A stretch of 64,000 nucleotides of DNA from Candidatus Fervidifonticultor secundus (lineage in GTDB: Bacteria > Sysuimicrobiota > Sysuimicrobiia > Sysuimicrobiales > Humicultoraceae). The stretch is taken from contig JAVKIP010000003.1 in assembly GCA_031459385.1 (NCBI GenBank), forward strand, positions 40,413 through 104,412. Direction: 5' to 3'. Position numbers and translations under genes: made by a program. The notes under the pieces were generated by a model. It was not told the origin of the DNA. It searched no databases and saw nothing but the letters and a program-made list of their open reading frames with translations. Shown piece after piece: positions 13,313-18,581 of the stretch. The number at the start of each line of letters is the position of its first letter. The stretch's first letter is position 1.

Positions 13313-15903
<2,591 letters not shown>

Positions 15904-15908
15904 CTACC

Positions 15909-16193
15909 CTACCATGCCGCCGCGCCCCCGGCCATGGCAGGGATGATGGAGACCTCCGCGCGCTGGTCCAGCGGGGTGTGCAGGCCCTGCAGCGTACGCA
16001 CGTCCTGCTCGTTCACGAAGACGTTCACGAAGTGGTGGAGCTGGCCGTCCCCGTTCACCAGCCGCTCGCGCAACCCCGGGAAGCGGCGCTCGAGTTCGTC
16101 GATGGCCTCCGCCAGCGTCAGCGCCTCCACCGTGACCACCCGTGCGCCGTTCGTGTAGCGGCGCATGGGTGAGGGAATGCGAATCGTCGCCAC
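15909..16193 (-). CDS. Ubiquitin-like sulfur carrier protein (CysO/MoaD/ThiS family; MetO-like)
   Basis: IRIPSPMRRYT, FPGLRERL, FVNVFVNEQDVR, VSIIPAMAGG followed by an AAAW extension; GAGGAG RBS. Confidence 0.88.
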   Translation of the reverse strand: MATIRIPSPMRRYTNGARVVTVEALTLAEAIDELERRFPGLRERLVNGDGQLHHFVNVFVNEQDVRTLQGLHTPLDQRAEVSIIPAMAGGAAAW

Positions 16194-16204
16194 CGTCGTC
16201 CTCC

Positions 16205-17431
16205 TCACGAGACCCTGGCCAGCACCGCGTCTTCGAACGCCCGCAGCGACGGCCGCACGCGCACAGGCGCCGCCACCGCGTCGGCCAGGTGGTCTGCGGT
16301 CTTCAGCCCCATGCCCGTGATGAACGCCACCGTGACGCCCGCGGGATCCAGGGCGCCGCCTGCGGCCAGCTTCTTGAGCACCGCGATCGTCACCCCGCCG
16401 GCGGTCTCGGTGAAGATCCCCTCGCACTCGGCCAGCAGGCGGATGCCGTCGACGATCTCCTCATCGGTGGCGTCGTCGATGCGGCCGCCGCTGGCTCCCA
16501 CCGCGGCGATGGCGTACCGCCCGTCGGCCGGCGTGCCGATGGCCAGCGACTGCGCGATCGTACGGGGCCTGACGGGGGTGATGGCCCCGCCCCGTTTGAA
16601 CGCCGTGCTGACCGGCGCGCACCCTGCCGGCTGCGCGCCGTGCACGCGCGTCGTCGCGGCGGCGACCAGGCCCACCGCGGCCAGTTCCTGGAAGCCGCGG
16701 TGGATCTTGACCAGCAGGTTGCCCGACGCGACGGGCACCACCACGTCAGCGGGCACCTGCCATCCGAGTTGCTCGGCCACCTCGAAGGCCAGGGTCTTCC
16801 CGCCCTCGCTGTAGTACGGCCGCATGTTGACGTTGAGGAAGGCCCAGTGGTGCTCCTCGCCGATCTCGGCGCAGAGCCGGTTGACGTCGTCGTAGCTGCC
16901 CTCGACCTCGACCACGGTCGGCCCGTAGATGGCCGAGGCCAGCACCTTGCCGCGCTCCAGGCCGGCGGGGATGAAGACGTAGGCGCGCATGCCGGCGCGG
17001 GCCGCGTGGGCAGCCACCGAGTTGGCCAGGTTGCCGGTAGAGGCGCAGGCGAGCACGTGGTAGCCGAACCGGCGCGCCGCCGCCGTCCCGATGGACACCG
17101 ACCGGTCCTTGAACGACCAGGTGGGGTTGGTGGAATCGTTCTTGATGTACAGGCGCTGCAGCCCCAGGCGCTCGCCCAGCCGGGGCGCCGGCACCAGCGG
17201 CGTGCACCCCGGGGAGAGGTCTGCGGCCGGATCGCAGGGCACCGGCAGGAGATCGGCGTAGCGCCAGATCGACCGGGGTCCGGCCTCGATCCGCTGCCGC
17301 AGCGGCAGACGGCGCAGCGTCTCCAGGTCGTACACCGGTTCCAGCGGGCCCAGACAGCGCTCGCACACGTACACCGGCCCGGCCGGCACCTCCGCGTCGC
17401 ACTCGCGACACCGCAGCCGATCGACTGCCAT
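16205..17431 (-). CDS. Threonine synthase-family PLP enzyme, probably a sulfur-carrier-dependent O-phosphohomoserine sulfhydrylase (MetM-like)
   Basis: N-terminal CxxC..CxxC, NPTWSFKDR (PLP Lys), CASTGN, EGGKTLAFE, ETAGG, TGMGLKT; between thrB and a sulfur carrier, under a SAM riboswitch. Confidence 0.85.
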   Translation of the reverse strand: MAVDRLRCRECDAEVPAGPVYVCERCLGPLEPVYDLETLRRLPLRQRIEAGPRSIWRYADLLPVPCDPAADLSPGCTPLVPAPRLGERLGLQRLYIKNDSTNPTWSFKDRSVSIGTAAARRFGYHVLACASTGNLANSVAAHAARAGMRAYVFIPAGLERGKVLASAIYGPTVVEVEGSYDDVNRLCAEIGEEHHWAFLNVNMRPYYSEGGKTLAFEVAEQLGWQVPADVVVPVASGNLLVKIHRGFQELAAVGLVAAATTRVHGAQPAGCAPVSTAFKRGGAITPVRPRTIAQSLAIGTPADGRYAIAAVGASGGRIDDATDEEIVDGIRLLAECEGIFTETAGGVTIAVLKKLAAGGALDPAGVTVAFITGMGLKTADHLADAVAAPVRVRPSLRAFEDAVLARVS

Positions 17432-17463
17432 CTCTCTCCTCCCCCGCCCGGTGTTCCCGGCGG

Positions 17464-18363
17464 TCAGGTCGCCAGGGCTCCCCGGGGTTCGATGCGTGTC
17501 TCGATCGCACGGCTGTGCACGCCCACCGCGGCGAAGGCAGCCACCATGGCGGCGCCCACCGCGCCCGCAGCCTCCGGTGGCGCCAGCGCCGCCACCGTGG
17601 GCCCGGAGCCGCTCAACACCGCGCCGTAGGCACCCGCGGCCTCGGCAGCGCCCACTACGGCCTCGAAGCCCGGTACCAGCGACGCCCGGTACGGCTGGTG
17701 GAGCCGGTCGCGCAGCGCGCCCCGCAGGGCCCCGGCCTGACCCGTGGCCAGCGCGGCGACCACCAGCGCCACCTGCGCCAGGTTGAACACGGCATCCGCG
17801 CGCTCGACCTGGGCCGGCAGCACGCGTCGCGCCGCCGCGGTCTCCACCTCCAGCGCCGGCACCGCCAGTACCACGGCCACCGGGAGTGCCGGGACGATCC
17901 GCGCCCACCGCAGTGCCGTCCCGTCGCGGGCCACGATCACGACGCCGCCGAAGAGCGCCGCCGCCACGTTGTCCGGATGGCCTTCCAGGTCCGTGGCCAA
18001 TCGCAGCAGCCTCTCGGCGTCCAGGGCGTCGCCCAGCAGCCGGTGCGCGGCCACGAGCCCCCCGACGATGGCCGCAGCGCTACTCCCCAGGCCGCTGCGC
18101 AGGGGAATCGGCGAGCGCGCCCGCAGGGCGAAGGCGCCCTGCCAGCCGGTGGCGGCAGCGGCCACCTGCGCGCTGCGGTAGATCAGGTTCGAGACGTCCT
18201 GTGGGACGTCGACGCCCGCGACCTCGACAGAGGGCGTCGGCGCTGCGGCCAGCGTGACCTCGGCAAACAGGCCAACCGCCGCCCCCAGGCAGTCGAACCC
18301 CGGCCCGAGGTTGGCGACGGTTGCCGGCACCTGCACAGTGACCTGGTCGAGCGCGACGGCCAC
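17464..18363 (-). CDS. thrB: Homoserine kinase
   Basis: VPATVANLGPGFDCLG, IPLRSGLGSSAAA (GHMP), EGHPDNVAA, DRLHQPYR, LSGSGPT. Confidence 0.95.
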   Translation of the reverse strand: MAVALDQVTVQVPATVANLGPGFDCLGAAVGLFAEVTLAAAPTPSVEVAGVDVPQDVSNLIYRSAQVAAAATGWQGAFALRARSPIPLRSGLGSSAAAIVGGLVAAHRLLGDALDAERLLRLATDLEGHPDNVAAALFGGVVIVARDGTALRWARIVPALPVAVVLAVPALEVETAAARRVLPAQVERADAVFNLAQVALVVAALATGQAGALRGALRDRLHQPYRASLVPGFEAVVGAAEAAGAYGAVLSGSGPTVAALAPPEAAGAVGAAMVAAFAAVGVHSRAIETRIEPRGALAT

Positions 18364-18382
18364 GCCCCATCTCTCCCGCACA

Positions 18383-18421
18383 TAACAAGAAACCCCTCCA
18401 CTTCCTGCGCCGGGAGGGGTT
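18383..18421 (-). terminator. Intrinsic terminator of the SAM riboswitch expression platform
   Basis: Minus strand AACCCCTCC...GGAGGGGTT stem followed by TCTTGTT, just downstream of the aptamer. Confidence 0.75.
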
Positions 18422-18426
18422 CTACC

Positions 18427-18531
18427 CTCTTATCCGCCGGAACTGGGTTCCGCGGGGCTTGGCACCTTACCGCCCATGCGGCAGGTTGCCGGGGGTCATC
18501 GGGCCCGTCCCTCACCCACTCTTGATAAGAG
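18427..18531 (-). ncRNA. SAM-I (S-box) riboswitch
   Basis: Minus strand CUCUUAUCAAGAG..GAGGGACGGGCCCGAUGACCCCCGGCAACC..AAGGUGCCAAG..GAUAAGAG matches the SAM-I core; P1 = CUCUUAUC/GAUAAGAG. Confidence 0.95.
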
Positions 18532-18552
18532 AAACGTATGCAGTTGAGAGTC

Positions 18553-18581
18553 AACCTAGCATAGCGTGGCGCACGCGTCAA
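18553..18581 (-). promoter_or_regulatory. Sigma70-type promoter of the SAM-riboswitch operon
   Basis: Minus strand TTGACG-17 bp-TAGGTT with extended TG. Confidence 0.55.

Follow-up and report, generated by a model that had tools for sequence, protein, structure and literature searches.

A probable MetM/MetO-type homocysteine operon, with thrB behind a SAM-I riboswitch and an enzyme named threonine synthase, in an uncultured high-G+C lineage

In Mycobacterium tuberculosis, the CysM/CysO/Mec+/MoeZ system of cysteine synthesis uses a phosphorylated hydroxy-amino acid and a carrier thiocarboxylate, and comprises a pyridoxal phosphate (PLP) enzyme of the beta-family, a JAMM hydrolase and an activating ThiF-rhodanese protein. 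In Streptomyces albulus, a MetM/MetO/Mec/MoeZ route from O-phosphohomoserine (OPH) to homocysteine was reported by Hasebe et al. in 2024, as described in the available parts of PMC13759103 and PMC12172450. The first of these (GapMind 2026), in the part available, names MetO, Mec, MoeZ and MetM as Streptomyces proteins with experimental support, treats MetO as a required step of the homocysteine route and describes MetM as 'often misannotated' as threonine synthase. The available text of PMC12172450 places an S-adenosylmethionine (SAM) riboswitch upstream of S. albulus metM and records MetM homologues in cyanobacteria, including a protein of Microcystis PCC7806 that shares 51.6 % identity with S. 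albulus MetM, with a neighbour 47 % identical to MetO. Here, we describe a locus of this kind in a 64,000 nt stretch of DNA (the window) from Candidatus Fervidifonticultor secundus. The genome measures 3.3 Mb (72 % G+C, 59 contigs, 97.6 % complete), and the window belongs to its contig C23. The locus is probably a thrB-metM-metO operon that makes homocysteine by the MetM/MetO route and is repressed by SAM. It consists of the following features, all on the minus strand.

18553..18581, minus strand: promoter-like site, TTGACG (18576-18581), a 17-nt spacer and TAGGTT (18553-18558); a weak candidate.
18427..18531, minus strand: SAM-I riboswitch aptamer RF00162, found as a covariance-model match.
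18383..18422, minus strand: intrinsic-terminator-like hairpin (hairpin proper 18390-18422) with a U-rich tail, identified by folding and conservation.
17464..18363, minus strand: thrB, homoserine kinase of the GHMP type, TIGR00191.
16205..17431, minus strand: candidate MetM-like homocysteine synthase, a ThrC-family PLP enzyme of 408 aa, identified by Pfam PALP, TIGR00260 and its position in a tree.
15909..16193, minus strand: MetO-like sulfur carrier of the ThiS/MoaD fold, 94 aa, identified by PF02597 and alignment with homologues.

The three genes and the RNA elements share one orientation, with gaps of 63 nt between aptamer and thrB, 32 nt between thrB and the enzyme gene, and 11 nt between the enzyme and carrier genes. 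Matches in Rfam, Pfam and NCBIfam place the aptamer, thrB, the ThrC-family gene and the carrier where the first-pass annotation of this DNA had put them. As in S. albulus, a ThrC-family enzyme that carries the name threonine synthase lies next to a carrier with a GG motif and downstream of a SAM riboswitch, and MoeZ-like and Mec-like genes are found in the same genome. The locus differs from the S. albulus system in belonging to a lineage that is not actinobacterial (the nearest named matches are 'Armatimonadota bacterium' and 'Bacillati bacterium ANGP1'), in starting with thrB, the sole homoserine kinase, and in a carrier extended to GG-AAAW. The logic of the mycobacterial system is the same, and the window genome has its own CysO-like/CysM/JAMM cluster on contig C34; however, the substrate of the window enzyme would be OPH, its fold is that of ThrC and not CysM, and its product would be homocysteine. 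Canonical threonine synthases, with structures from Thermus thermophilus (1UIM), Bacillus subtilis (6CGQ), Aquifex aeolicus (2ZSJ) and M. tuberculosis (2D1F), share the PLP fold, the presumed substrate and the SFKDR region with the window enzyme, which differs in an extra Cys4 ribbon, a separate clade and changed residues. The Microcystis aeruginosa PCC7806 'ThrC' belongs to the same carrier-linked clade as the window enzyme but has no SAM riboswitch, according to the available part of PMC12172450, and Rfam finds none in the Microcystis locus. The sequence evidence thus supports well the view that the locus is a mislabelled member of the known MetM/MetO system; the pathway itself has been published and is included in GapMind, and is not a discovery of this work. 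What appears particular to the lineage is a sole homoserine kinase inside a SAM-controlled operon and a carrier that would need C-terminal trimming.

Two samples were used for comparison. The first contains 80 homologous loci in named genomes outside the window's own phylum (Chloroflexota, Cyanobacteriota, Actinomycetota, Nitrospinota, Nitrospirota, Aquificota, Verrucomicrobiota, Methylomirabilota and others), together with all ThrC-family genes of 12 such genomes, 11 of which carry at least two. The second comprises 94 genomes of the window's own phylum, the window's own included, in which the enzyme was counted at E <= 1e-60, and the best 30 loci from these were compared in detail. One genome flagged as unpublished (G024, locus L129) is part of the own-phylum counts, and no claim is made on it alone.

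The enzyme, whose gene is preceded by GGGAGGAG, matches Pfam PALP at 233 bits and the NCBIfam thrC model TIGR00260 at 265.8 bits, against a cut-off of 167.1, and this score explains its database name. The prediction that automated annotation would mislabel the gene was borne out, as 'threonine synthase' is every source-given name among the 120 matches listed in each of three homologue searches. Three genes of the genome exceed the thrC cut-off, namely the window gene, C58:82669-83766 and C1:207157-208446. The C58 gene, on another contig and flanked by genes for homoserine dehydrogenase (hom) and aspartate kinase (ask), was taken as the canonical thrC, so the second, canonical gene that the first-pass reading called for is present. 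Identity of the window enzyme to the members of its clade is 53-67 %, compared with 38 % to the canonical thrC product and 35 % to the third paralogue; the Microcystis homologue, which has a MetO-like gene downstream, is 53 % identical.

For the phylogeny, 116 extracted open reading frames (ORFs) were reduced to 98 by removing 5 partial or alternative ORFs and identical copies, after which cyanobacterial rows were thinned to 1 in 5 and Escherichia coli ThrC was added, giving 74 rows. Maximum-likelihood trees were built from these under LG+G4 and, without E. coli (73 rows), under LG+C20 with posterior mean site frequencies (PMSF). In both, the window protein lies inside a clade of 56 rows with a Shimodaira-Hasegawa-like approximate likelihood ratio test (SH-aLRT) value of 100, outside canonical ThrC, as had been proposed. 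This clade takes in every row that has a MetO-like gene immediately downstream (48 rows). The 11 canonical ThrC rows, 6 of which adjoin hom or thrB, fall outside it, and in the LG+C20 PMSF tree they form one side of a branch with SH-aLRT 99. The groups in the PMSF tree were set by best BLAST query and are partly circular, whereas the context labels on the LG+G4 tree are independent of the sequences. Judged by its place in the carrier-linked clade, and by lacking both the grouping and the active-site residues of canonical enzymes, the window enzyme is not a canonical ThrC. Its N-terminus carries a Cys4 ribbon (C8, C11, C23 and C26), with approximately 50 residues more than canonical ThrC.

The third paralogue, C1:207157-208446 (locus L003:1267-2556), also has a Cys4 ribbon, matches NF006050 at 597 bits and adjoins an AstE/AspA-like gene; in the tree it belongs to a third group, apart from both canonical ThrC and the MetM-like enzymes. 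Cysteate synthase was considered as an identity for the window enzyme and rejected, the TIGR03844 score being 34 bits against a cut-off of 325.

Comparison of the 56 rows of the clade with the 11 canonical ones shows 34 alignment columns that are fixed differently. Of these, 23 are residue substitutions and 11 belong to the N-terminal ribbon and W224, which are gaps in the canonical rows. The clade-specific residues include L135, E159, Y180, N184, N202, R204, Y207, S295, A297, G304, T343, G345, G346 and T378. Four of them, L135, N202, R204 and Y207, align to T88, S155, N157 and R160 of T. thermophilus ThrC, and the residues at these positions are L, N, R and Y in 56/56 clade members and T, S, N and R in 11/11 canonical sequences. 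The region of the PLP lysine (SFKDR) and 16 columns are invariant across all three ThrC-family groups. Presumably T88, S155 and R160 of ThrC bind the substrate phosphate, which directs water to C-beta; if so, the phosphate site would have been rebuilt in the clade, a change consistent with a second half-reaction of another kind.

The carrier gene is preceded by GAGGAGGA, and its product matches PF02597 at 49 bits, with SAMP1 and MoaD_arch slightly below their cut-offs. It aligns over its full length with the products of the downstream genes at other loci, sharing the tail [IV][IV]PA[VIM]AGG, and ends ...IIPAMAGG-AAAW, four residues past the GG. A thiocarboxylate forms only on a free GG, so the window carrier would need C-terminal trimming. 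Such extensions recur: among the complete carriers from other phyla (n=72, drawn from 72 loci and a Nonomuraea record), 56/72 end at GG and 15 have 1-13 extra residues, and in the own phylum 13/29 end at GG and 15/29 have 1-13 extra residues. The extension is AAAW in the window and APAW in two congeners. The remaining one of the 72 carriers from other phyla, in a Syntrophaceae metagenome-assembled genome (MAG; L057:4782-5291), continues at its C-terminus into a NIL domain (PF09383, 52 bits); the window operon contains no NIL gene.

A carrier gene lies downstream of the enzyme gene in 72/80 loci of other phyla and adjoins it in 30/30 of the best own-phylum loci. This constancy over several phyla, the conserved ...PA[VIM]AGG tail and the status of MetO as a required step in the published route (PMC13759103, in the part available) make it very unlikely that the ThrC-like enzyme uses free sulfide or a small sulfur donor, with a carrier that is dispensable or serves, for example, protein modification. 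That account would draw on the 8/80 loci in which no carrier gene was found beside the enzyme, one of which has only ~220 nt of sequence downstream, and on a second carrier beside cysM, 49 % identical to that of the window, as the two could be interchangeable or redundant. Complex prediction for the enzyme with carrier residues 1-90 gave scores on both sides of the 0.32 mark (0.37, 0.28 and 0.29) and speaks neither for nor against an interaction.

The aptamer scores 87.1 bits with RF00162 over the full model (1-108; E 2.8e-19), for which the gathering score is 44.4. This is the single match across the genome, directly ahead of the operon, and RF00162 is the sole Rfam family above its gathering score in the window. 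Downstream lies a G+C-rich 10-bp stem formed by GAACCCCUCC and GGAGGGGUUU around a 13-nt loop (18390-18422) and followed by UUUCUUGUU, with a U-rich tail that reads CUUGUU. The terminator claimed earlier stands as a hairpin with a fold energy of -19.1 kcal/mol (ViennaRNA), although a consensus terminator scan of the window made no call there; the scan admits loops of 3-8 nt only. Its conservation was assessed in 21 leaders, from same-phylum relatives in which a covariance model built in this analysis finds the aptamer before thrB. By a motif-based count, CCCCUCC-loop-GGAGGGG followed by at least five U within 14 nt is present in 21/21, and GAGG occurs just upstream of the terminator, at the 3' end of P1, in 20/21. 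In the window leader the corresponding GAGGG is complementary to CCCUC of the terminator stem and could act as an antiterminator; minimum free energy folding of the leader with ViennaRNA produced no antiterminator. Hairpin, U-rich tail and conservation together are those of a SAM-I expression platform, and the leader is predicted to be a transcriptional OFF switch, with SAM binding leading to termination. Of the promoter noted in the first pass, TTGACG is present, but TAGGTT fits the -10 consensus at 3/6 positions and a consensus scan of the window reported no promoter at this site, which is weakly suggestive of a promoter at best.

In other phyla, the analysis-built model finds a co-oriented SAM-I element directly upstream in 26/80 loci, 6 of the 26 having been used in building it; the Rfam scan itself reports SAM-I in 6/19 loci submitted. 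A 27th model match in a Chloroflexi MAG (L088:2911-3014, 24.8 bits) is SAM-like and was not reported by Rfam. It sits between thrB and the MetM-like gene in the row hom-thrC-thrB-metM-metO, and the carrier gene of that locus is closely followed by a T-box leader (L088:5196-5622, 104 bits).

The product of the first gene matches TIGR00191 at 245 bits (cut-off 168). Its start was placed at the GTG at 18363, behind GGGAGAG; the frame is also open from an upstream GTG at 18381, and the thrB match starts at residue 1 of the 18363 GTG in 16/30 own-phylum loci, the window's included. No other gene of the genome has a TIGR00191 match above cut-off, and there is no match to thrB_alt, the Pseudomonas-type thrB. 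By these searches, no homoserine kinase other than the operon thrB is recognisable in the genome. The earlier idea of a self-contained module with a kinase of its own has to be revised in this respect, as the operon thrB does not duplicate another kinase gene. The canonical ThrC, too, must then draw its OPH from the SAM-gated gene, and SAM would gate an intermediate shared by threonine and methionine synthesis in this lineage. An apgM-like gene (C4:14106-15422) was considered as a homoserine kinase and set aside; it scores 244 bits with the HomK model TIGR02535 (cut-off 446) and passes the phosphoglycerate mutase model at 402 bits (cut-off 320).

Searches for MetX (TIGR01392) and MetA/HTS (PF04204), which were positive in control genomes, found neither in this 97.6 %-complete genome. 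The proposed absence of metA, metX, metY and metB therefore holds for MetX and MetA, while two full-length Cys_Met_Meta_PP (cysteine/methionine metabolism PLP) paralogues exist on C43 and C4, both below every NCBIfam cut-off. A single ThiF-family gene, C58:125429-126760, is MoeZ-like, with a rhodanese domain at residues 291-387; it covers positions 14-384 of the 392 in the MoeZ model at 423 bits, below the cut-off of 647. A JAMM protein with the motif HSH...S..D (C34:70739-71152; PF14464, 94 bits) is encoded directly after cysM (TIGR01138, 396 bits) and is Mec-like; it may act on the window carrier. The second carrier mentioned above, near this cysM, ends AMAGG-A. Methylation of homocysteine could be provided by two adjacent short MetE-like genes (C8:53815-56036; Meth_synt_2, 44 and 159 bits) or by homocysteine S-methyltransferase domains encoded on C1 and C58.

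The C34 cluster (C34:68615-72372; loci L019 and L027) comprises a CysO-like carrier, a 280-aa ORF, cysM, JAMM, an Rrf2 regulator and an ECF sigma factor, and looks like mycobacterial thiocarboxylate-type cysteine synthesis of the CysO/CysM/Mec type; the 280-aa ORF between the carrier and cysM has no Pfam match. A third ThiS-fold domain, C58:142089-143231, is MoaD-like, ends VSGG and runs in frame into a MoaE-like part, an apparent MoaD-MoaE fusion. The C8 MetE-like pair resembles split or core MetE forms listed in the available part of GapMind 2026.

The components and their arrangement, the clade and the pathway genes present and absent are read from sequence; on this basis, the catalytic steps, the trimming and the on/off logic would run as follows. 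ThrB would phosphorylate homoserine to OPH, and the MetM-like enzyme would exchange the gamma-phosphate of OPH for sulfur from the C-terminal thiocarboxylate of the carrier, giving homocysteine, which the methionine-synthase-like proteins encoded elsewhere in the genome would methylate. The four residues after the carrier GG would be trimmed off, most likely by the Mec-like JAMM hydrolase encoded beside cysM, and the MoeZ-like ThiF-rhodanese protein would adenylate and sulfurate the trimmed carrier. At high SAM, the aptamer would close P1, the terminator would form and transcription would halt before thrB. The route proposed in the first-pass annotation, from OPH and carrier thiocarboxylate to homocysteine, is supported at this level by the clade, the separate thrC and the failure to find MetX or MetA.

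The substrate cannot be told from sequence, and a different gamma-replacement on OPH, such as the use of cysteine to form cystathionine as in plants, or the synthesis of a different sulfur amino acid, with no direct formation of homocysteine, would be served by two Cys_Met_Meta_PP paralogues that could cleave cystathionine. We regard this as highly improbable, as a conserved thiocarboxylate-type carrier under SAM control fits the homocysteine route in the published descriptions available, and the locus shows no sign of a cysteine co-substrate.

Several observations nevertheless weigh against a homocysteine synthase. The enzyme passes the thrC equivalog cut-off, the Cys_Met_Meta_PP paralogues on C43 and C4 could serve another sulfur route, and an operon holding the sole kinase must feed threonine synthesis too, which is odd with SAM repression. 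The tie to the characterised S. albulus MetM (UniProt A0A059WBP2; the MetO there is A0A059W7F4) is indirect, running through clade, context and the chain of identity via Microcystis: there is no Streptomyces among the 120 homologues listed for each of the Mycobacteriales and Nonomuraea protein queries, and a plasmid-collection search gave a Nonomuraea record and no Streptomyces among 25 of 40 matches or in the organism tally. In addition, the available text of PMC12172450 reports that the Microcystis enzyme made threonine from OPH and deaminated threonine to alpha-ketobutyrate in vitro, and that it did not raise methionine in cells; as described there, the assays did not include carrier thiocarboxylate. 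Clade members can evidently keep ThrC chemistry, and caution is needed in assigning function from the clade alone.

The score with TIGR00260, the sole kinase and the in vitro threonine synthase/deaminase activity of the Microcystis clade member (PMC12172450, in the part available) would each suit a second threonine synthase, possibly a bifunctional synthase/deaminase, in an ordinary threonine operon that stands behind a SAM riboswitch by chance. We consider this very unlikely. A canonical thrC already lies between hom and ask, the window enzyme is in a separate clade with maximal SH-aLRT, the residues aligned to T88, S155, N157 and R160 divide the 56 clade members from the 11 canonical enzymes without exception, and SAM-I elements precede the homologous loci as counted above. 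The carrier gene would also have no role in threonine synthesis. The MetM/MetO route is the reading we prefer.

The arrangement of the operon is widespread in the own phylum. The enzyme is found in 81/94 genomes and any MetX-like match in 7/94, and thrB is found in 86/94, always as a single gene (in one genome as two partial pieces). Of the best 30 loci, 29 have the order thrB-enzyme-carrier and one is cut by the contig end; a riboswitch precedes thrB in 21, with one further copy that is cut, 3 loci have room for it but no match, and 5 have no room. In the 77 genomes with both genes, thrB is located <=400 nt from the enzyme gene in 48, within 3 kb in 2 and elsewhere in 27, 22 of these 27 belonging to one family. 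By comparison, thrB is upstream of the enzyme gene in only 2/80 loci of other phyla.

Within the phylum, family f4 (G057-G079) has thrB on another contig or at a distance in 22/22 genomes with both genes, unlike f1, f3 and f5, and the MetX-like matches are concentrated in this family (5/23). In genus g12 (G026-G033), neither a MetM-like gene (E <= 1e-60) nor MetX was found in 8/8 genomes, and thrB was found in 6/8.

Downstream of the operon, ligA (13837-15840) begins 68 nt beyond the carrier gene on the same strand. A G+C-rich hairpin between them (15880-15904; GGAACCGG...CCGGTTCC) has no U run, and in the relative L123 the carrier gene is likewise followed by ligA. Given this shared order, read-through into ligA may occur.

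For the organism, we tentatively suggest, with less than even confidence, that OPH is the single branch point of threonine and methionine synthesis, as in plants, and that SAM throttles both branches through the sole kinase. Threonine synthesis would then rely on read-through, with the unregulated canonical ThrC scavenging leftover OPH, and one MoeZ and one Mec would serve MoaD, CysO and MetO. The arrangement would be fixed in several families, for which the basis is the single thrB adjoining metM in 48/77 own-phylum genomes with both. For the family, the annotation 'threonine synthase', the only source-given name among the matches listed, would be corrected, and the clade-specific residues may be used to tell MetM from ThrC automatically. 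In a metabolic reconstruction, the lack of a recognisable MetX or MetA would lead to this organism being scored, wrongly, as a methionine auxotroph. The MetM/MetO route of 2024 would be extended to an uncultured high-G+C lineage in most of whose sampled genomes the enzyme occurs, and the location of the one homoserine kinase gene downstream of a SAM switch raises a regulatory question on how threonine and methionine are balanced.

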